DNA of 64,000 bases from Mycobacteriales bacterium (GCA_046595815.1 JBKJSN010000019.1:4936-68935); one strand, 5' to 3'. Positions 23,423-47,513 are shown, counted from the first letter of the stretch. Numbers and translations: made by a program. The notes: generated from the letters alone by a model not told the origin.

Positions 23423-24409
23423 GTGATCGTCGACCTGCGTAGCGACACCCTGACCCGCCCGACTCCCGGGATGCGCGCCGCGATGGCCGCCGCCGAGGTC
23501 GGGGACGACGTCTATGGCGAGGACCCCACGGTCAACGCCTTGGAAGCCCGCGTGGCCGAGCTGTTCGGCCATCAAGCGGCGGTGTTCGTGCCCAGCGGCA
23601 CCATGGGCAACCAGATCTGCCTGCGCCTGGTGGTCCCGCAGGCGGGGGAGCTGCTGTGCGACGCGGACGCGCACGTTGTGACCTACGAGGGAGGAGGGGC
23701 CGCCCAGCACGGTGGGCTGCAGTCCCGCACCGTCAGCGGCGGACAGCTCTCCGTCGAAGCGTTCGCCGAAGCCATCCGCCCCGAGGGCTTCCACACGGTG
23801 GTGACAAGCGCGGTGTCGGTCGAACAGACGCACAACCGGGGCGGCGGGCTTGTCCAGCCGCTCGATGACCTGCGCGCCTTGCGCGAGCTGACTCGTGCGC
23901 ACGGCGTCGCTCTGCACTGCGACGGGGCACGCATCTGGAACGCCCACGTCGCCTCCGGCGTCTGTTTGCGCGAGTACGGCGAGCTCTTCGACACGCTGTC
24001 GGTGTGCCTGTCCAAGGGCCTGGGCGCCCCGGTCGGCTCGCTGGTGGTCACCTCGCACGAGCTTGCGAGGGAGGCGCGCGTGCTGCGGCACCGGTTGGGC
24101 GGCGCGATGCGTCAAGCCGGAATTCTCGCGGCCGCAGGCCTTTTCGCCCTTGACCATCACCTCGACCGGCTCGCCGAGGACCACGAGCGGGCCCGGCTGC
24201 TGGGGGAGCGGCTGGGGGTCCAGCCACAGACCAACATCGTCACCGTGCCGGTCGGCAACGCTCGCGAAGTGGCGGCCGCGGCGGCCGAGCAGGGCGTCCG
24301 GGTCGGCGTCGTCGGCCCCACGCGGATCCGCCTGGTCACACACCTCGACGTGGACGACGAGGGCGTCCGGCGCGCCGGGGAGGTCGTCAGCTCACTGCTC
24401 GGGCTGTGA
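23423..24409 (+). CDS. ltaE: Low-specificity L-threonine aldolase
   Basis: DLRSDTLT, VGDDVYGEDP, SGTMGN, DGARIWNA, SKGLGAPVG. Confidence 0.92.
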   Translation: MIVDLRSDTLTRPTPGMRAAMAAAEVGDDVYGEDPTVNALEARVAELFGHQAAVFVPSGTMGNQICLRLVVPQAGELLCDADAHVVTYEGGGAAQHGGLQSRTVSGGQLSVEAFAEAIRPEGFHTVVTSAVSVEQTHNRGGGLVQPLDDLRALRELTRAHGVALHCDGARIWNAHVASGVCLREYGELFDTLSVCLSKGLGAPVGSLVVTSHELAREARVLRHRLGGAMRQAGILAAAGLFALDHHLDRLAEDHERARLLGERLGVQPQTNIVTVPVGNAREVAAAAAEQGVRVGVVGPTRIRLVTHLDVDDEGVRRAGEVVSSLLGL

Positions 24410-25765
24410 ACCCTTCGGGTTCCCGCACCAGGCACCGTTGAGGAAGGTCGTCAGACCGGTCCGTCGCACGTCGTACCGCTGCTGGAGCGCTGTCCGGGTG
24501 TCCACCGCGCCCTTGCCGGGCGTCCAGCGGTAGACGTCGAACCCGCGGGCGAGGTCGTTGGCGTAGAGGTACCGGGAGTCCTTGTACTGCTTGGCGCTCC
24601 AGGTGTCGGCGTCGATCGCGGTGAAGGAGGCGAGCTCCTTCGGGATCCCGATCCGGTTGGTGATGTCGACGATGCGCACCCCCGCGGCGTAGCCCGCATT
24701 GGAGAACGACGTCGCCTGCGGGCCGTAGTCCAGGACGTGGGCGGTGCAGGTGAGGACGCCGCTGTTGGTGGTGGCGGTGAGGGAGTTCTGCGGGTTGAAG
24801 GCGTAGAACCCGGTCTTCACGGGGACCAGCTCGTTGGTGATGTCGTACACCGACACGCCGCCGACGTTGCAGACGCCGTTCGCGGCGGCGCCGGCCTGCT
24901 CGTCGGTGATGTACAGGTGCTTCTGGTCCGGGGTGATGTCGGCGCCGTGGCTGATGTTGATCGCCGGGTCGACGATCGTGGTGAGGATCGTGGGCCGCGA
25001 CGGGGTCGTCGTGTCGACGATCAGCGTCTGGGTGATCGCTGCGGAGTACGCGCGAGTCCCCTTGCGGTTGAAGGAGATGTCGTGGCTCGACAGGCCGGTC
25101 GGAAGTCCGAGGGTGGACACGATCTTCATCCGCTTCGGGTTGCTCACGTCGAGGACCTGGATGCGCCCCGTGTGGGCGGTCGGGTCGGTGCCCGCGGTGA
25201 TGGGCGTCAGTTCGCTGTCGCTGACGTAGAGCCACTTGCCGCTCGGGTGCAGGGAGGAGTTGTGCGCGCCGTACGGGACCTTCACGAAGCCGAGCGGGGT
25301 GGGGCGACGCGGGTCGGCGATCGAGATCGCGAGCACCCCGAGGGCAGGGCTGACTCCGAGCCGCTCGAAGCAGTCGGTGCCCTTCACCCCTCCGTCGACG
25401 CCCATGAACACCGTGGTGCCGCGGACCTGGACGTCGTTCTGGGTCACGTTGCAGGGAAGGAACCCGACCAGCGGCGGCGCGGCAGGGTTGGCCGTCAGGT
25501 CGAAGATCCGCAGCGCACCGAAACCGCTGTGTGCGTCCTCGGAAGGAGCGACCGCGTAGTCCCGGCCCTTGATGGTCGCGAACTCCAGGTCCGTGCCGCC
25601 CTTGTAGCTCCAGTTGGAGACCGGGGTCAGGTCCACCCCGGTGCCGTGGGCCGGCGTCCCGCGCCGGCCGGCCTCGCCAGGGAAGGCGGCGGGGGCGGCC
25701 TGCGAGACAAGGGGTGAGGCCAGGAGGGCGAGGACGGCCAGGGGGGCGAGGGAACGCAGACGCAT
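24392..25765 (-). CDS. Secreted LVIVD-repeat beta-propeller protein
   Basis: Signal peptide; repeated LRIFD/IQVLDVSNP/TLIVDTT/VRIVDIT blades; HN, HD, HG and CTAH motifs. Confidence 0.75.
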   Translation of the reverse strand: MRLRSLAPLAVLALLASPLVSQAAPAAFPGEAGRRGTPAHGTGVDLTPVSNWSYKGGTDLEFATIKGRDYAVAPSEDAHSGFGALRIFDLTANPAAPPLVGFLPCNVTQNDVQVRGTTVFMGVDGGVKGTDCFERLGVSPALGVLAISIADPRRPTPLGFVKVPYGAHNSSLHPSGKWLYVSDSELTPITAGTDPTAHTGRIQVLDVSNPKRMKIVSTLGLPTGLSSHDISFNRKGTRAYSAAITQTLIVDTTTPSRPTILTTIVDPAINISHGADITPDQKHLYITDEQAGAAANGVCNVGGVSVYDITNELVPVKTGFYAFNPQNSLTATTNSGVLTCTAHVLDYGPQATSFSNAGYAAGVRIVDITNRIGIPKELASFTAIDADTWSAKQYKDSRYLYANDLARGFDVYRWTPGKGAVDTRTALQQRYDVRRTGLTTFLNGAWCGNPKGSQPEQ

Positions 25766-25806
25766 GACCCCATTCTGTCAGCATCTGCCCTGCTCGTCCC
25801 GGTACG

Positions 25807-26829
25807 TCAGGTCGTGGCCAGCCTGCGGCCCACCGCCGGAGGAAGATCGCGGCAGGCGGCAGCCAACTGGGCCAGGTCCTCGCCGTACAGCGCCTGCGGG
25901 CCGTCGCACAGCGCCGACTGAGGGTCCGGGTGGATGTCCACGATCACGGCATCGGCCCCGACCGCGATCGCCGCCCGGGTGAGAGGCACGACGAGGTCAC
26001 GACGGCCGCCGGAGTGGCTCGGGTCGATGACGATCGGCAGGTGGCTCAGTGCATGGATCATCGGGACCGCGCTGATGTCCAGGGTGTTGCGGGTCGCGGT
26101 CTCGAAGGTCCGGATCCCCCGCTCGCACAGGACGATGTCGAGGTTGCCGCGCTGGGCGACGTACTCCGCGGCCATCAGCCACTCCTCGTAGGTCGCGGTC
26201 ATCCCACGCTTGAGCATGACGGGCTTGCCCGCCGAGCCGACAGCCTGCAGGAGCGCGAAGTTCTGCATGTTGCGGGTGCCGACCTGCAGCATGTCGGCCC
26301 ACTCTGCGACGAGCGGTACGTCGGCCGCGTCCACGACCTCGGTGACGATCGGCAGGCCTGTCTGCTCGCGCACCTCGGCGAGGATCCGCAAGCCCTTCTC
26401 GCCCAGCCCTTGGAAGGCGTAGGGGCTGGTGCGCGGCTTGAAGGCGCCACCGCGCAACAGGGTCGCGCCCGCGGCGAGCGCCATCTGCGCGGCTTGCAGG
26501 GTCTGCTCGGCCGTCTCGACGGCACAGGGACCGGCGATGAGGGTGAAGGTCTCGGGGCCGATGGGGACGCCGCCGACCCGCACGGTGGTCGCCTCGGGGT
26601 GGTGCTCGCGGCTCACGAGCTTGTAGGGCTTGCTGACGCGGACGACGTCGCCGACGCCACGCATGGCCCGCAGGTTCAGCGTCGTGAAGTGCTCGATGTC
26701 GCCGACAAGACCGACGATCGTGCGCTGCACGCCTCGGCTGACAAAGGCCTCGCCACCGGCGGCTTCGACGCGCGCGACGATCGCGTCGATGTCCTCGGGG
26801 GTGGCGTCGGGGCGCATGACGACGACCAT
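25807..26829 (-). CDS. aroF: Class I-beta DAHP synthase with N-terminal ferredoxin-like regulatory domain
   Basis: IAGPCAVE, RGGAFKPRTSPYAFQG, RNMQNF, LKRG, CERGIRTFE, DPSH. Confidence 0.93.
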   Translation of the reverse strand: MVVVMRPDATPEDIDAIVARVEAAGGEAFVSRGVQRTIVGLVGDIEHFTTLNLRAMRGVGDVVRVSKPYKLVSREHHPEATTVRVGGVPIGPETFTLIAGPCAVETAEQTLQAAQMALAAGATLLRGGAFKPRTSPYAFQGLGEKGLRILAEVREQTGLPIVTEVVDAADVPLVAEWADMLQVGTRNMQNFALLQAVGSAGKPVMLKRGMTATYEEWLMAAEYVAQRGNLDIVLCERGIRTFETATRNTLDISAVPMIHALSHLPIVIDPSHSGGRRDLVVPLTRAAIAVGADAVIVDIHPDPQSALCDGPQALYGEDLAQLAAACRDLPPAVGRRLATT

Positions 26830-26850
26830 CAGATACCTGCTCCTTCAACG

Positions 26851-26878
26851 AAAAAGCCCCGGGCAGGTGCCCGGGGCT
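26851..26878 (-). terminator. Intrinsic terminator of the aroF leader (attenuator 3:4 hairpin)
   Basis: Minus strand reads AGCCCCGGGCA-CC-TGCCCGGGGCT-TTTT, directly before the GAAGGAG SD of aroF. Confidence 0.85.
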
Positions 26879-26894
26879 CGTGTGGTCAGGTGCG

Positions 26895-26951
26895 TCAGCA
26901 GGCACCCGACCGGGAGTCCCGGTCGGGAAAGCCATACCACCGCGCCTGCAT
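26895..26951 (-). CDS. Putative attenuator leader peptide MQARWYGFPDRDSRSGAC
   Basis: 18-aa ORF with W-Y-G-F; TAGCGT -10-like box 7 nt upstream (leaderless); overlapping alternative hairpins and terminator downstream. Confidence 0.75.
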   Translation of the reverse strand: MQARWYGFPDRDSRSGAC

Positions 26952-26999
26952 GAGTACGACGCTACCCCAGGCGTTCGGGCCGATGAGCGCAGGGGCAGG

Positions 27000-27623
27000 A
27001 TGACGGATGTGACCACCCCGTTCCACCGCGTGGGCGCCGCGAAGCGGGCTCGCGGTGTTCCGGCGGAGCGCATGCCCCCTGGTCAGTACATCCCGCGTGG
27101 GTGGCCGGCCCTGCACTACGGACCGGTGCCGCGCTTCACGCCGGCGACGTGGGACTTCCGGGTCTTCGGGGTAGGGCAGGACGAGCTGCGCTGGACCTAT
27201 GACGAGCTGTCGGCACTCCCGATGTCGGACTTGGTCGCGGACTTCCACTGCGTCACGAAGTTCACGATCCTCGACAACCTTTGGCGCGGTCTGGCCTGCT
27301 CGACGCTGCTGACCCTGGCCCCGCCGCCGCCGTCGGTCTCGCACGTGATGGTCTGGGCGGAGTACGGCTACTCGGCCAACCTGTCGCTCGCCGACTTCGC
27401 GGCCGGCATGTTCGTGACCCACCGCAACGGTGCACCGCTGTCCCCTGAGCACGGCTTCCCGCTGCGCCTTGTCGTGCCTCACCTCTACGCCTGGAAGGGC
27501 CCCAAGTGGGCACGGGGCGTGGAGTACCTCACCGAGGACCGGCGAGGCTTCTGGGAGGAGCGCGGCTACCACAACAACGCCGATCCTTGGCGCGAGCAGA
27601 GGTACGCCTACCAGGAGGAGTAG
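27000..27623 (+). CDS. Sulfite oxidase-like molybdopterin oxidoreductase
   Basis: PPGQ, DFHCVT, HGFPLRLVVPHLYAWKGPKW, GFWEERGYH. Confidence 0.9.
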   Translation: MTDVTTPFHRVGAAKRARGVPAERMPPGQYIPRGWPALHYGPVPRFTPATWDFRVFGVGQDELRWTYDELSALPMSDLVADFHCVTKFTILDNLWRGLACSTLLTLAPPPPSVSHVMVWAEYGYSANLSLADFAAGMFVTHRNGAPLSPEHGFPLRLVVPHLYAWKGPKWARGVEYLTEDRRGFWEERGYHNNADPWREQRYAYQEE

Positions 27624-27861
27624 CACCGGGGGGCCCACAGTCCGCGAGGCGGGAGAAGCCCTGCCCTGACTAGGGCTTCTGAGGTGCACGGTGCGCGGTC
27701 GCCCGCTTCTCCCTGCCGCTCTGGTCGGGCTTCTCCCGCCTGCGGCCAGTGCACCTCGCGCGGTTGTCCTGCGCAAGGGTCGAAGGTCCCGATTGGCGTT
27801 CTGGTTCTGCGAGGTCGAAGGCGGGTACGACGCTGGTCATGGGACGAGATGGGTCGCGGCG

Positions 27862-28237: not shown

Positions 28238-29113
28238 TCAGACCTCCAAGCGGGAGACCGAACCCTCCGCTCCGTGCCGGGGGCCGACCTCCGTCAGCAC
28301 CATGGCGGCCAGCACGAGCACCGCTCCGACCAGAGTTCGGGGCCCGAGCCTTTCACCGGCGACCGCCACCGCGAACAGCCCGCTGAAGACCGGCTCCATC
28401 GTCATGATGACCGCGGCCCGGGTGGGCGCCAGGTGTGCCTGCGCCCAGGTCTGCACCACGAACGCCAGGGCCGTGGCGCCCAGTGCTGTCACGGCCAACG
28501 CCCGCAAGACCGACGACGAGGGTGGGACCACGACACCGCCTGGGACGGCCACCAGCGCGCAGAGCACCGCCGTCGTGGCGAGCTGGACGACCGCGAGACC
28601 GAAGGCGTCATACGACGAGGCCCAGTGTCCGAGGCCCACGATGTGCAGCGCGAAGGCGGCTGCGCAGCCGAGGGTCAGCAGCTCGCCGTACCCGACGGCG
28701 AAGCCGTGCAGGGACATCAGCGCCAGGCCCACGGTCGCGAGCGCAACGGCGCTCCACGCCAGCAGGGGCACACGCGCCTTCAGGAGCAAGGCTGAGCCGA
28801 GCGGCGTGAGCACTACGAACATGCCGGTGATGAAGCCGCTCACCGCGGCGGAGGTGTGCTGCAGCCCGAGCGTCTGGAGCAGGTAGCCCGCGCCGAGCGC
28901 GAGGCCGACGATCACTCCCGCACGCCGGCCGGAGGGCCCGAGCGCTGCGACCGAGCGGGGCCGGATGGCCAGCATCACCAGCGCCGCCAGCCCGAACCGC
29001 CAGGTGAGGAAGTCGGTGACGGGCATCTGCTCGACCGCGTCCTTCACGACGACGAAGGTTGAACCCCAGATCGCGGTGACCCCGATCAGCGCCAGGGTGG
29101 GGCGGTCAGGCAT
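28238..29113 (-). CDS. DMT/EamA-family transporter
   Basis: IWGSTF, RF, LQTLGL, EPVF; about 10 TM segments. Confidence 0.9.
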   Translation of the reverse strand: MPDRPTLALIGVTAIWGSTFVVVKDAVEQMPVTDFLTWRFGLAALVMLAIRPRSVAALGPSGRRAGVIVGLALGAGYLLQTLGLQHTSAAVSGFITGMFVVLTPLGSALLLKARVPLLAWSAVALATVGLALMSLHGFAVGYGELLTLGCAAAFALHIVGLGHWASSYDAFGLAVVQLATTAVLCALVAVPGGVVVPPSSSVLRALAVTALGATALAFVVQTWAQAHLAPTRAAVIMTMEPVFSGLFAVAVAGERLGPRTLVGAVLVLAAMVLTEVGPRHGAEGSVSRLEV

Positions 29114-29977: not shown

Positions 29978-31828
29978 CTAGTAGACGTACATCACAACGG
30001 TGGTCCCGCGCTTGACGCGCTTGCCGCCCTTGGGGTCGGTCTGGAGCACGTTGCCAGGGCCGCCCTGGACCACCACACGTTCCTCCACGACCAGCCCCGC
30101 TTCCTCGAGCAGGCGGCGGCCGGTCGCACGGTCCATGTCCTTGACGTTGGGGACGGTCACGATGTCCGGGCCCTTGCTCACCTGGAGGGTGACCGTCGAG
30201 CCCTTGTCCGCCGTACCGGAGGAGGGCGATTGGGAAACGACCACTCCGACCGCAACGGTGTCGCTGAAGACCTGCTGGATGGCCACCCCGAAGCCGCGTG
30301 CGATCAGCTTGCGCTCGGCGTCGTCCTGCTTGCTGCCCGTGACGTTCGGGACCTCGATGGGCTGCTTGCCCTTGGAGACGACGAGCGTCACCACCGCACC
30401 GGGCTTGAGTCGTTGCCCCGGCGCGGGATCGGTCGTCACGACCCGACCCTTGGCCACGGTCTGGCTGTAGACCGACTTGTCGACCGCCGCCACCTCGAGC
30501 CCCACCCCGACGAGCTCGGTGCGAGCGTTTGCGACGTCCTTGCCCGCGACCCGTGGCACCACACGCCGGTCCGGCCCCTTCGAGAGCTGGAGAGTCACGG
30601 TTCCGCCCTTGCGGACCCGGTCACCGGGGCCAGGGCTCTGCTCCAGGACCAGACCGCGGGCGACGGTTTCGCTGAAGGCATCCTCGCCGCGCTCGACCTT
30701 CAGGCCCTCAGCCTCGAGCGACTGGGTGGCCTTGGCGAGGGTGAGGCTCAGGACCGGCGGCGTCGTGGTGAAGCGGTAGCTGCCGAGGTAGAAGCCACCG
30801 CCCAGAGCCAGCAGTGCCAGCACGAGGATCAGGACCAGGCCGCGACGGCCGCTCCGTCGGGCCTTCGCCTTCTTCGCCGGCTTCTCCGCAGCCTTCTCCG
30901 AGGGCGCTGCCGCGACGGGCGCACGCCGAGGAACCACCAGGGTCTGCTGCTGACTCACGGGTACGGCGGGCAGCTGGCCCTTGACGGAGACGAGCTCGGC
31001 GAGGAACTCGCCCGCGTCAGCAGGGCGGTCCTGCGGGTCCCGGCGGGTCGCCCGGACCACGAGGGCGTCCAGCGACGGCGGGATGCCCGCGACAGCGGAC
31101 GAGGGGGGCGGCACGTCCTCGTGCACGTGGCGGTAGGCCACCGACAGCGGTGTCTCCCCGGCGTACGGCGGGGTGCCGGTGAGCAGCTCCCACAGCAAGA
31201 TGCCGGTCGCGTAGACGTCGCTGCGCGCATCGGCCGTGCCCGACTCGACCTGCTCGGGGGACAGGTAGGCAACGGTGCCGATGAGCAGCCCGGTGGTCTG
31301 GGTGAGGTTGCTGGTCTCGATCGCGCGAGCGAGCCCGAAGTCGGCGACCTTCACCCGACCGTCGTCGGCGAGCAGCACGTTCTCTGGCTTGATGTCGCGA
31401 TGCACCAGGCCGGCGGCGTGCGCGGCAGCCAGGGCGCGCAGGACCGGCTCGATGAGGGCGACCGCTCGGGCGGGAGTCAGCGCTCCACGCTCCAGCAGCA
31501 GCTGCCGCAGGTTGATCCCCTGCACGTGCTCCATGACGAGGTAGGCCAGACCGGTGTCGCGGTCGGTGCCTTGGTCGTGCACCCCCACGACCTCGGGTGC
31601 CTGCACCCTGGCTGCGGCGCGGGCCTCCCGCGCGAAGCGCGCCACGAACTCCGGATCCTCCGCCAGCGCCCGGTGCATCACCTTGACGGCGACTTGGCGG
31701 TCCAGGCGCGTGTCCGTGGCGACGTACACCGTTGCCATCCCGCCGCGTGCGATGACGCGGTCCAGGCGGTAGCGGTCGTCAAGGAGCCGCCCGGTCAGCG
31801 GCGCAGCGGCATCCGACGCAGTCTCCAT
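29978..31828 (-). CDS. PASTA-domain Ser/Thr protein kinase (PknL-like)
   Basis: GGMATVY, VAVK, HRDIKPEN, DFG, YLSPE, one TM, four PASTA-like repeats. Confidence 0.93.
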   Translation of the reverse strand: METASDAAAPLTGRLLDDRYRLDRVIARGGMATVYVATDTRLDRQVAVKVMHRALAEDPEFVARFAREARAAARVQAPEVVGVHDQGTDRDTGLAYLVMEHVQGINLRQLLLERGALTPARAVALIEPVLRALAAAHAAGLVHRDIKPENVLLADDGRVKVADFGLARAIETSNLTQTTGLLIGTVAYLSPEQVESGTADARSDVYATGILLWELLTGTPPYAGETPLSVAYRHVHEDVPPPSSAVAGIPPSLDALVVRATRRDPQDRPADAGEFLAELVSVKGQLPAVPVSQQQTLVVPRRAPVAAAPSEKAAEKPAKKAKARRSGRRGLVLILVLALLALGGGFYLGSYRFTTTPPVLSLTLAKATQSLEAEGLKVERGEDAFSETVARGLVLEQSPGPGDRVRKGGTVTLQLSKGPDRRVVPRVAGKDVANARTELVGVGLEVAAVDKSVYSQTVAKGRVVTTDPAPGQRLKPGAVVTLVVSKGKQPIEVPNVTGSKQDDAERKLIARGFGVAIQQVFSDTVAVGVVVSQSPSSGTADKGSTVTLQVSKGPDIVTVPNVKDMDRATGRRLLEEAGLVVEERVVVQGGPGNVLQTDPKGGKRVKRGTTVVMYVY

Positions 31829-31877
31829 CGAGTGCGATTCTAGGCGGCTTCCCGGCGGAGAAGGTGCTGGCGCGCCG

Positions 31878-32777
31878 TCAGGAGAAGCGCGCCCGCAGCA
31901 GCAGCACGTTGCGGACGTACTGCTTGGTCTGCGGCAGCAGCCCCACCCGGCTGATCGAGCCCAGGCCTTGGTAGTAGCCGGCGAGGGCCTTCTCCACACT
32001 CCCGGTGGCCCGCAGCAGGTCGCTGAGCAAGATCACGCCCGCCTCGACGTTGTCGGAGGCCTTCAGCAGATCGAAGCGCCGCCCGTGCAGTCGCCCGAGG
32101 GCGTTGCCGGTGCGCGGCAGGACCTGCATCGCGCCGATCGCGTCCACGGGCGAGACGACACCTTGCTGGAAGCCGCTCTCCTGGTACGCGAGGGCCAGTG
32201 CCAGGTTCACCGGCACATCGTGCCGCCGTGCGGCACGGACGATCAGCTGCTGCACGACCGCCTTGCTGGGCAGCGAGCGCGCCCGCAGCGCCGCCCGGTG
32301 CGCCGCTGCGGACTGTGCGACCGAGCCCGCCACCCGCACCGTGCTCGAGGGAGGCGCGAGGCGAACGGTCACCGGGTAGCGCAGGCGCTCGCCGAGCAGG
32401 AGGTAGTCGCGGCGCAGACCGTTGGCCCTGGTGAGCACCTCGGGCGTCGTCCGCAGCTTCCGAGCGACGACGATCAGTCCGTCCCCGGGGCGCACCGTGT
32501 AGGTCTGGACGGTGGTCCGGGTGGCAGGGTTACTAGGGGTGGGGCGAGCGCTCGCCGTACCCGGAACGCGCAACGTCGCGCCTGCATAGAGGGTCGTGCT
32601 GCCGCCCATGCCGTTCAGGGCCTGCAGCGTCGCCACGGTCGTGCGATGGCGGAGGGCGAGCTCGCTGAGGGTGTCGCCGCTGCGGATCCGGATCACGTTG
32701 GGCGCGCCGGCCGTCACAGCGGCGGCAAGGAGGGCGAGCAGGCCAACGGCGCGCAGCCCACGGGTGGGACGAGACAT
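31878..32777 (-). CDS. LysM (x2) + SLT lytic transglycosylase
   Basis: Signal peptide, GDTLSELA and PGDGL LysM repeats, QESGF, AIGAMQ, YYQG. Confidence 0.9.
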   Translation of the reverse strand: MSRPTRGLRAVGLLALLAAAVTAGAPNVIRIRSGDTLSELALRHRTTVATLQALNGMGGSTTLYAGATLRVPGTASARPTPSNPATRTTVQTYTVRPGDGLIVVARKLRTTPEVLTRANGLRRDYLLLGERLRYPVTVRLAPPSSTVRVAGSVAQSAAAHRAALRARSLPSKAVVQQLIVRAARRHDVPVNLALALAYQESGFQQGVVSPVDAIGAMQVLPRTGNALGRLHGRRFDLLKASDNVEAGVILLSDLLRATGSVEKALAGYYQGLGSISRVGLLPQTKQYVRNVLLLRARFS

Positions 32778-45974: not shown

Positions 45975-47513
45975 TCAGATGTCGCGGAAGGGCTCGATCT
46001 GGGCGCCGAGGCTGGACAGGCGTGCCGCCAGGTCCTCATAGCCGCGGTCGATGACGTAGACGTTGCGCAGCACGCTGGTGCCCTTGGCCGCGAGCATGGC
46101 GAGCAGGATCACGACGGCCGGTCGCAGCGCCGGGGGGCACATGACCTCGGCCGCGGACCAGTGGGTCGGGCCGTCGATCCAGATGCGGTGCGGGTCGAGC
46201 AGCGTCACACGGCCGCCGAGCCGGTTGAGTTCGGTGAGGTAGATCGCCCGGTTCTCATAGACCCAGTCGTGGATGAGCGTTCGGCCGTGCGCCGAGGCCG
46301 CGATGACGGCGAAGAACGGCACGTTGTCGATGTTCAGGCCGGGGAACGGCATCGGGTGGATCTTGTCGAGCGGCGCCCGGAGCTGGGACGGGGTGGTGGT
46401 GACGTCGACGAGTCGGGTCCGACCGTTCTCCGCGGGGTACTCCTGCGACAGCTGCATGTGGCAGCCCATTTCTTCGAGGACCGCGAGCTCGACCTCGAGG
46501 AATTCGATGGGTACCCGCCGTACCTCGATCTGGGAGCCCGTCACGATGGCTGCAGTCAGCAGCGACATCGCCTCGATCGGGTCCTCGGAGGGGGCGTACT
46601 CGACATCGACATCGATCTGGGACCGGCCGTGCACCGTCAGGGTCGTGGTGCCGACGCCGTCGACCTGCACCCCGAGCAGATCGAGGTAGAAGCACAGGTC
46701 CTGGACCATGTAGTTGCTGCTCGCGTTGCGGATGACCGTGACCTGGTCGAGCCGGGCCGCGGCCATGAGGGCGTTCTCGGTCACGGTGTCGCCGCGCTCG
46801 GTGAGCACGATCGGCCGCGTGGGGAACTGGCCGACGTCGCGGGTCACGTTGTAGGAGCCCTCGGTCGCCACCACCTTCACGCCGAACGGCCGCAGCGCGG
46901 ACTTGTGCGGCTCGACGGTGCGGGTGCCGAGGTCGCAGCCCCCGGCGTACGGCAGCTGGAAGTCGTGCTCGCGGTGCAGCAAGGGGCCGAGCAGCAGCAG
47001 GACAGAGCGGGTACGGCGAGCGGCCGTCGCGTCGAGGCTGTCCAGCGCCAGCTGGGCCGGGGGCTGGAGCGTCAGGTCGTCGCCGCTCCAGGACGCCTCG
47101 ACGCCGATGCTGCGCAGCACCTCCAGGATCCGGTTGACCTCCTCGATCCGGGCCACGCCCCGAAGGGTGGTGCGGCCGGCGTTCAGCAGGGAGGCACACA
47201 GCAGCGCGACAGCGGCGTTCTTGCTGCTCTTGACCTCGATGGAGCCGGATAGGCGCTGCCCGCCGACGACGCGAAGATGAGTGGGGCCTGAGTGTCCGAG
47301 TTGCACTAGACCAGCGTCGAGGGCGGTACCTATGCGCGCCAGGATCTCCAGGGAGACGTTCTGCTTGCCCTGCTCGATGCGGGCCACTGCGCTCTGGCTC
47401 GTGGCAAGCGCGTCGGCCAGCTGCGACTGGGTCCAGCCTCGGTGCTTGCGCGCGTCGCGCACGAGGGCGCCGATCTGCTGCAGGTAGTCGTACTGCGGGT
47501 CTGACTCAGTCAT
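45975..47513 (-). CDS. XRE-family HTH fused to MurA-like enolpyruvyl transferase
   Basis: RGWTQSQLA...SQSAVARIEQG HTH, then SKNAAV, GGCDLGTR, TENALMAA, PFPG, YENR, LR, IDRGYE. Confidence 0.88.
   Translation of the reverse strand: MTESDPQYDYLQQIGALVRDARKHRGWTQSQLADALATSQSAVARIEQGKQNVSLEILARIGTALDAGLVQLGHSGPTHLRVVGGQRLSGSIEVKSSKNAAVALLCASLLNAGRTTLRGVARIEEVNRILEVLRSIGVEASWSGDDLTLQPPAQLALDSLDATAARRTRSVLLLLGPLLHREHDFQLPYAGGCDLGTRTVEPHKSALRPFGVKVVATEGSYNVTRDVGQFPTRPIVLTERGDTVTENALMAAARLDQVTVIRNASSNYMVQDLCFYLDLLGVQVDGVGTTTLTVHGRSQIDVDVEYAPSEDPIEAMSLLTAAIVTGSQIEVRRVPIEFLEVELAVLEEMGCHMQLSQEYPAENGRTRLVDVTTTPSQLRAPLDKIHPMPFPGLNIDNVPFFAVIAASAHGRTLIHDWVYENRAIYLTELNRLGGRVTLLDPHRIWIDGPTHWSAAEVMCPPALRPAVVILLAMLAAKGTSVLRNVYVIDRGYEDLAARLSSLGAQIEPFRDI

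Follow-up and report, generated by a model that had tools for sequence, protein, structure and literature searches.

The window analysed here, a 64,000-nt stretch of DNA from a Mycobacteriales bacterium (GCA_046595815.1 JBKJSN010000019.1:4936-68935), carries a short element on its minus strand, directly upstream of aroF, a gene for 3-deoxy-7-phosphoheptulonate (DAHP) synthase. We infer from its sequence and from related loci that this element is very probably a ribosome-mediated (leader-peptide) transcription attenuator of aroF, which would answer the supply of aromatic aminoacyl-tRNAs. The assignment builds on the features of the sequence itself, on their conservation upstream of orthologous genes, on a bias in codon choice, and on base pairing that is kept in register across the family. 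With less confidence, we lean toward the view that it represents an undescribed, multi-lineage family of leaderless attenuators that subjects the committed shikimate step to joint control by the charging of Trp-, Tyr-, and Phe-tRNA. The marks of this family would be rare sensor codons ending in U, a nested antiterminator whose leader strand, made of Pro-Gly or Gly-Pro codons, imitates the 3' arm of the terminator, and an origin probably independent of aroR, the aromatic leader of Corynebacterium glutamicum.

A first-pass annotation, made from the sequence of the window alone, had listed a TAGCGT box, a leader peptide, a hairpin, a terminator, and a Shine-Dalgarno (SD) sequence in this region, and all of them are present on the minus strand. 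The putative promoter -10 region TAGCGT (26964-26959) is preceded by TGGGG (26969-26965), which fits the family motif T-G-n-G-n-TANNNT, and 7 nt (CGTACTC) separate it from the ATG (26951-26949) of a leader open reading frame (ORF). This ORF, MQARWYGFPDRDSRSGAC, spans 26951-26895, has homologous short ORFs at related loci, and consists of 18 codons followed by TGA (26897-26895). Its candidate regulatory codons, TGG TAT GGC TTT (26939-26928), specify W5 (26939-26937), Y6 (26936-26934), G7 (26933-26931), and F8 (26930-26928). Hairpin A:B, CCCGACCGGG / CCCGGTCGGG, with 10 pairs (26927-26905), begins directly after the Phe codon, as annotated, in both the minimum free energy (MFE) and the centroid structures; in free RNA it is lengthened by outer pairs, down to transcript nt 4-65. 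An intrinsic terminator follows (26879-26851), with the 5' arm GAGCCCCGGGC (26879-26869), the loop ACCT, and the 3' arm GCCCGGGGCTT (26864-26854). It was found by folding and by a terminator scan, which gave a stem at 26879-26854 (11 pairs, including 9 G-C; 4-nt loop) and a T-run at 26855-26851. The window holds an ORF rich in aromatic codons and an intrinsic terminator, at which termination is predicted, before a structural gene. The 126-nt leader folds at -71.0 kcal/mol, compared with -50.8 +/- 4.09 kcal/mol for 200 dinucleotide shuffles, none of which was as stable (z = -4.94; 0/200).

The gene downstream (25807-26829, minus strand; start ATG at 26829) has an SD-like sequence, GAAGGAG, at 26846-26840, recognized by sequence only. 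Profile matches of its 340-aa product identify it as a type I-beta DAHP synthase that carries a ferredoxin-like (FXD) domain at its N terminus: it scored 469.6 bits against NF006421 (cut-off, 335), 380.2 bits against TIGR01361 (cut-off, 267.75), 250.6 bits against PF00793, and 74 bits against PF18152. The top NCBIfam row for the product was BagF/FevY, at 603 against a cut-off of 700, and since this score lies under the cut-off we did not file aroF as a secondary-metabolite paralogue. By analogy with work on the Thermotoga enzyme, the FXD domain presumably confers allosteric control.

Conservation of the element was examined upstream of orthologous genes. A genome scan with the aroF protein gave at least 600 matching stretches, with 587 confirmed relatives among the matches listed; the best 80 of these 587 (73-89% identity) and the window made up a set of 81 upstream regions, each comprising the 300 nt before the aroF start. 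The search rule was a TANNNT hexamer 5-9 nt before an ATG or GTG that opens an ORF of 18-28 codons with a W/Y/F cluster. This rule was satisfied by 63 of the 81 regions, as against 0/81 reverse complements, a mean of 0.06/81 (maximum, 1) in 50 dinucleotide shuffles, and 0/69 unrelated 300-nt segments of the same loci. In 62 of the 63 leaders the rule used places a GC-rich hairpin with a T-rich tail after the ORF, and in the remaining one (L066) a bulged hairpin of this kind was recognized by eye; the terminator is separated from aroF by 18-102 nt and stays clear of its SD sequence. The core of what had been proposed, namely that aromatic codons in a probably leaderless leader-peptide attenuator precede a class I-beta aroF, is borne out by these 63 regions.

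All 63 leaders could be aligned as one family (alignment A1), in which TGG TAT GGC of the window matches the W-Y-G of longer leaders; examples of leader beginnings are MRTAFWFWYGDGP, MRQQFWFWFGYRPG, MRNVVYFFWFDQPG, and MQRNFWRFYGYRP. The five closest relatives of the window among the best 80 of 587 begin M-x-x-x-W-Y-G-F-P in four cases and have W-Y-A-Y-P in one. A covariance model built from A1 (R1) recovered its own 63 sequences and added two loci from Nocardioidaceae, L020 (41.3 bits) and L022 (40.9 bits), with leaders containing Y-L-F; the regular expression had missed both, so the family total is 65/81. Matches of R1 on the minus strand of the loci reflect the near-palindromic terminator. 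Within the 64-kb window, the only score above 20 bits was that of the element itself (26847-26951, minus strand; 50.7 bits). A weaker minus-strand match (46141-46258; 17.5 bits, E = 0.053) reads as coding sequence and was taken as noise. The element occurs in genera of the Streptosporangiales, in Nocardiopsis, Streptomonospora, Actinomadura, and Spirillospora, and also in metagenome-assembled genomes (MAGs) of Frankiales, Mycobacteriales, Nocardioidaceae, Nanopelagicales, and Motilibacteraceae.

Across the 65 leaders, W, Y, and F account for 5.0%, 6.1%, and 8.3% of residues, together 19.4%. All three are present in 52 leaders (W in 56, Y in 63, F in 63), and each leader has between 2 and 7 aromatic residues. 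Their order and number vary freely between subfamilies, and one aromatic residue is exchanged for another; for this reason the codons look regulatory rather than part of a functional peptide. The spelling of these codons is also distinctive. In 63 leaders TTT outnumbers TTC (72 to 48) and TAT outnumbers TAC (52 to 36), whereas the adjoining aroF genes (62 loci) use TTC 353 times and TTT 3 times, and TAC 292 times and TAT 4 times. Five Pfam-supported genes of the window have the same preference as aroF (1 TTT to 42 TTC; 3 TAT to 30 TAC), and the window leader spells Tyr as TAT and Phe as TTT, both rare codons in its genome. This bias suggests that the codons themselves, beyond the RNA that they form, are under selection.

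The spacing between the hexamer and the start codon is likewise constrained: it is 7 nt in 37 of the 63 leaders, 6 nt in 18, 8 nt in 6, and 9 nt in 2. A TANNNT at 6-9 nt from the start codon in 63/63 leaders is what a leaderless transcript looks like at sequence level, and the leader mRNA is probably leaderless or nearly so. Upstream of the hexamer, T is found at -5 in 54 leaders, G at -4 in 48, and G at -2 in 57, and the bases before TANNNT are often ATGCGC or GTGCGC; no -35 consensus was visible in the 63 hexamer-anchored leaders. The conserved bases before TANNNT may extend the -10 element or bind a protein. A scan for sigma-70 consensus promoters returned no sites; actinobacterial promoters do not fit that consensus, so the scan is uninformative, and the TANNNT analysis was used in its place.

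The mechanism that we propose for the attenuator involves alternative pairings within the leader RNA. In the free RNA, A pairs with B and the terminator forms. In the favored alternative, A' (CCGGGACTC, 26922-26914, transcript nt 30-38), recognized from folding and as one strand of a family-wide helix, pairs with D (26879-26871, nt 73-81) in the terminator 5' arm, and a nested hairpin B:C, GGTCGGGTGC (26911-26902) with GCACCTGACC (26893-26884), spans the stop codon (26911-26884; duplex, -20.3 kcal/mol in the folding calculations). Transcription would start at, or 1-2 bases from, the leader ATG (26951), and a ribosome would translate the 18 codons behind the polymerase. With Trp-, Tyr-, and Phe-tRNAs charged, the ribosome would reach UGA and cover B and C, whereupon the terminator (26879-26854) would form and transcription would stop near 26851. 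Were the RNA not translated, A:B would form, leaving the terminator 5' arm free, with termination as the expected outcome. A ribosome stalled at the rare aromatic codons (W5 and Y6 are best placed, and F8 is marginal) would cover the 5' half of A; B would then pair with C, and the freed A' would take the terminator 5' arm before the 3' arm had been made, allowing read-through into aroF. What this scheme predicts is where transcription starts and terminates, that the leader is translated, and how aroF responds to starvation.

Alignment A1 was examined for the pairings that this mechanism invokes. The terminator is 97.6% paired, with both-sided changes in 5 of 10 pairs, and it is present in the MFE structure of the free full-length leader at 59 of 63 loci. 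Hairpin A:B is 82.2% paired, with both-sided changes in 5 of 6 pairs, compared with at most 60% in slid controls. An alignment of orthologous upstream regions had been proposed as a check on the first-pass annotation, and it gave both conserved aromatic codons (63/81) and compensatory changes in these two stems. Helix A':D (columns 51-58 with 144-151) is 81.7% paired, compared with at most 55% when slid, and its duplex energy ranges from -14.6 to -17.6 kcal/mol across the window and its five closest relatives. In most subfamilies the strand of A':D within the leader ORF consists of Pro-Gly codons (GGCCCGG); a subfamily named for its GDGP residues has GGACCC instead, and its terminator arms are GGGTCC / GGACCC in place of GGGCC / GGCCC. 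This difference in the arms accounts for a change of C to U at column 149 in 13 sequences, in which the partner in the terminator (column 164) and the partner in the antiterminator (column 53) are both changed from G to A. Such a three-way change at columns 149, 53, and 164 is what alternative pairing predicts. Alternative pairing would also explain the conserved sequence of the terminator core, GCCCCGGG; plain terminators are not conserved in sequence.

Each subfamily has its own complementary B and C segments. Cognate B:C duplexes have a mean energy of -16.5 kcal/mol, compared with -13.2 kcal/mol for non-cognate combinations, and the cognate duplex is the better one in 51 of 63 leaders. The difference is larger in the subfamily of the window (-18.1 versus -12.7 kcal/mol), and there is none in seven DQPG-type leaders (-13.69 versus -13.69 kcal/mol), so that support for B:C across the family appears moderate. 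A further possible stem would join AUGCGC at the 5' end with UGCGCUGA at the end of the ORF (columns 14-18 with 101-105; nt 4-11 with 58-65 in the window). It is 78.5% paired, but 72.6% when slid by -2, owing to a GCGC repeat, and covariation is almost nil; after a first round of translation, such a stem could enclose the entire leader, with the start codon hidden inside it.

The switch was then modeled by masking a ribosome on the leader RNA, with an assumed footprint of -15 to +10 relative to the first base of the A site and an uncertainty of 2-3 nt. The free RNA of the window formed A:B and left the terminator 5' arm unpaired (probability 0.01), and sequestration of the arm rose to ~0.7 with the A site on codons 2-7. 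It was ~0.3 with the ribosome on F8 and low or irregular further on; on account of this drop, W5 and Y6 would be the last codons at which a stalled ribosome opens A:B yet frees A', with F8 marginal, at the edge of the effective zone. The first-pass inference that a shortage of any one of the three end products might switch on DAHP synthase is not supported as it was put, given the marginal place of F8 and the lack of response of C. glutamicum aroR to Tyr despite its Tyr codon (PMC11802643). When the ribosome is placed on W5 or Y6 and the RNA is truncated ahead of the terminator 3' arm, the best fold of the window leader has an energy of -32.7 kcal/mol, with B:C (nt 41-50 with 59-68) nested inside A':D (nt 30-38 with 73-81). 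Masking on codon 6 gave B:C and A':D in the window and in all five closest relatives. The antiterminator suggested in the first-pass annotation, in which 26908-26899 pair with 26873-26864, can be drawn as described, over 10 positions with 2 G-U pairs, but it does not stand as the main antiterminator: when forced, this fold reaches -25.7 kcal/mol, compared with -32.7 kcal/mol for the alternative. Its duplex energy is -17.2 kcal/mol in the window and -7.1 to -13.6 kcal/mol in the five closest relatives, where it is weaker because the terminator loop differs. The annotation had also proposed folding with ribosome masking as a check. For the window this produced the alternative fold on codons 2-7 only, but across the family it did not separate the states of the switch.

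Several results weigh against attenuation in this form. In the truncated-RNA model of the 63 loci, at least 5 nt of the terminator 5' arm were paired with bases of the ORF in 63/63 loci with a stalled ribosome, in 43/63 with no ribosome, and in 56/63 with a ribosome at the stop codon, and so folding alone does not separate the stalled, free, and at-stop states; we would expect a helix that closes around a ribosome on the stop codon to be sterically excluded. Sequestration of the 5' arm was just modestly higher than with shuffled intervening sequence (0.73 versus 0.57). It exceeded the shuffles at 61/63 loci, but at only 12/63 did no more than 1 of 30 shuffles reach the observed value, and the loci are related to each other. 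In the window, the terminator persists in the equilibrium fold of the full-length leader wherever the ribosome is placed, and the antiterminator, with 5+3 pairs and a duplex energy of -14.6 kcal/mol, is short relative to an 11-pair, GC-rich terminator. For both reasons read-through would have to be kinetic, as it is in classical trp attenuation. The A-U covariation at columns 149, 53, and 164 comes from the GDGP subfamily alone and may represent a single evolutionary event. The window leader, moreover, holds one codon each for W, Y, and F, and classical attenuators repeat theirs.

The last of these points is that 16 of the 81 orthologous loci lack the element, among them those of Amycolatopsis, Actinokineospora, and Pseudonocardiales. 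In 10 of the 16, an open frame on the same strand reaches to 22-45 nt from aroF. In two of these the frame was assigned to a gene: at L034 a gene for a PASTA kinase (frame at 3-1373) ends 128 nt before aroF, and at L007 an EamA gene (frame at 2-589) ends 22 nt before it; neither locus has a leader. The order of PASTA kinase, EamA, and aroF genes matches that of the window and suggests that transcription from an upstream gene serves aroF in some genomes. At L012 and L041 (82% and 79% identity), neither a leader ORF nor a terminator was found in the short intergenic region. Both loci seem, by sequence, to keep the divergent molybdopterin gene of the window, and they point to loss of the element.

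If the leader is translated, control could in principle be exerted other than by termination, through Rho-dependent polarity, mRNA stability, or access to the ribosome-binding site of aroF, with the GC-rich hairpin acting as a stabilizer or processing site. The persistence of the terminator in all equilibrium folds is consistent with this, as are the interrupted T-tracts of many relatives (for example, TTCGTCGTTT) and a description of C. glutamicum aroR as 'negative translational control of aroF' (PMC7356990). We consider it unlikely: by the terminator-finding rule a T-rich run follows the hairpin in 62/63 leaders, the hairpin is situated 18-102 nt before aroF and clear of its SD sequence, and a conserved complement of the terminator 5' arm inside the leader ORF follows the logic of antitermination.

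A TnaC-like sensor, in which the nascent chain stalls on a free aromatic amino acid or some other ligand rather than at an uncharged tRNA, would account for the Gly that follows the aromatic cluster in most leaders and for the Pro-Gly or Gly-Pro within a few residues of it. Neither the order nor the number of W, Y, and F is fixed, however, and the downstream peptides differ (PDRDSRSGAC, GDGPVRT.., GYRPGSRTVARQTLR, DQPGRLVCQTLR); what is kept is RNA pairing, in that the CCCGG or GGACCC codons complement the terminator arm. Given also that the bias toward rare codons fits the sensing of tRNA charging, and that a sensor of amino acid excess would have the wrong sign for a biosynthetic gene, this explanation is distinctly improbable. 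We find it hardly credible that the element is a protein- or ligand-binding RNA, similar to a riboswitch or a T-box, and the short ORF incidental. A structured, conserved 5' region with a terminator is what such an RNA would provide, but all 63 loci with an aromatic ORF have an in-frame start 6-9 nt after TANNNT, exchange among aromatic residues takes the place of nucleotide conservation, rare codons are favored, and no Rfam family reached its gathering score. A chance ORF beside an ordinary terminator is very unlikely, to the point of being negligible: high-GC DNA does yield many spurious ORFs and hairpins, and the leader is in frame with a spurious ORF of 293 aa, but the counts (63/81 versus 0/81, a mean of 0.06/81, and 0/69 in controls) and the fold z-score of -4.94 argue otherwise, and a terminator placed just before a gene start, between divergent genes, has nothing else to terminate. 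Attenuation of aroF through the leader peptide is the reading that we retain.

The window has a G+C content of 70.4%, and the aroF proteins closest to its own are attributed to MAGs labelled, for example, Mycobacteriales bacterium or Frankiales bacterium. An Oxidored_molyb gene (27000-27623, plus strand; PF00174, 112 bits) is divergent from aroF, and as it begins at 27000 the leader sits in a divergent intergenic region of ~170 nt. The 293-aa ORF (26895-27776, minus strand), whose frame and stop codon are those of the leader ORF, runs antisense through the Oxidored_molyb gene and was rejected as a gene, having the look of an artefact of high G+C content. A gene-calling program could accept this ORF and so hide the leader peptide. 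Farther upstream, on the minus strand, are genes for an EamA transporter (28238-29113) and a PASTA-domain Ser/Thr kinase (29978-31999). The order of PASTA kinase, EamA transporter, and aroF recurs at other loci, and in the window the divergent molybdopterin-oxidoreductase gene is interposed. Just downstream of aroF, at 24387-25784, are long overlapping ORFs of 465 aa (minus strand) and 326 aa (plus strand), for which no Pfam or NCBIfam matches were found. A search of the whole window (1-64000) with Rfam 15 found no family at gathering score.

If the attenuator works as proposed, it would show how many high-GC actinomycetes set shikimate flux at the level of RNA, on top of the allostery expected from the FXD domain. 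The actinomycetes that bear it include antibiotic-producing genera (Nonomuraea, Microbispora, and Streptosporangium), and it is relevant to the engineering of strains for products derived from aromatic precursors; in C. glutamicum, aroR has already been removed for such products (PMC7356990). For annotation, the 65 examples make a ready-made RNA and leader family that is missing from Rfam 15. The leaders also form a natural series, with 2-7 aromatic codons in varied orders, from which it may be learned how one leader weighs three amino acids.

No description of this aroF leader family was found in full-text literature, a search that most subscription journals fall outside and that is not proof of novelty, and no matching family for the aroF leader is present in Rfam 15. 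The best Rfam match was Leu_leader (RF00512; 31.1 bits, E = 3.5e-4), which likewise has two hairpins and then a terminator; it is enterobacterial, with Leu codons, and the score is below the gathering threshold of 50, the match being one of general architecture. A 2005 survey of Actinobacteria reported no RNA elements for Phe or Tyr genes (PMC1262725). An older database listing has predicted attenuators before some operons with an I-beta aroA in Thermus and Thermoanaerobacter, without leader peptides (PMC1173090). In E. coli, control of the DAHP synthase genes falls to the repressors TyrR and TrpR (PMC11802643). The leaders of Streptomyces lividans (trpL1, leuL, ilvL, and others) resemble those described here in being 12-29 aa long and leaderless, with TAnnnT, hairpins, and a U-rich stretch (PMC8079986). 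The eight listed in it serve trpE, trpS, leuA, leuS, ilvB, alaS, metN, and thrS, unlike the present family, and that list has no leader for DAHP synthase or other aro genes and none with W, Y, and F together (PMC8079986).

The E. coli trpL and pheL leaders share with the present element end-product codons in a leader ORF, a first hairpin, and an intrinsic terminator, as well as an antiterminator as the alternative fold, which for the present element is proposed. They differ from it in being SD-led, in responding to one amino acid each, and in controlling terminal branches of the pathway, and their simple 2:3 pairing contrasts with the nested antiterminator favored here, in which A':D encloses B:C. 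The closest likeness is to aroR-aroF of C. glutamicum. The first-pass annotation had implied that an attenuator of this sort lacked precedent, which is incorrect: in aroR-aroF, a DAHP synthase gene is already attenuated through an aromatic leader peptide. The two systems have in common a short aromatic leader just upstream of an actinobacterial DAHP synthase gene and, presumably, ribosome-mediated attenuation. We take C. glutamicum aroF (cg1129) to belong to a different class of DAHP synthase from the FXD-bearing I-beta enzyme encoded here, and because the classes differ the two elements are probably convergent, with a likeness that is functional and drawn from the literature only. In an abstract by Neshat from 2014, the C. 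glutamicum attenuators are reportedly leaderless transcripts. The aroR leader contains F-Y-F upstream of aroF, with a predicted attenuator (PMC4046766, Mentz 2013), and a review describes it as responding to Phe limitation, the availability of Tyr being without effect despite the Tyr codon (PMC11802643). It differs from the present family in its F-Y-F motif, which lacks Trp, and in that Phe limitation alone is reported to act. In kind, the element upstream of aroF is very probably a textbook case of ribosome-mediated attenuation, here in the form of a conserved, apparently unnamed family with an analogue in C. glutamicum.

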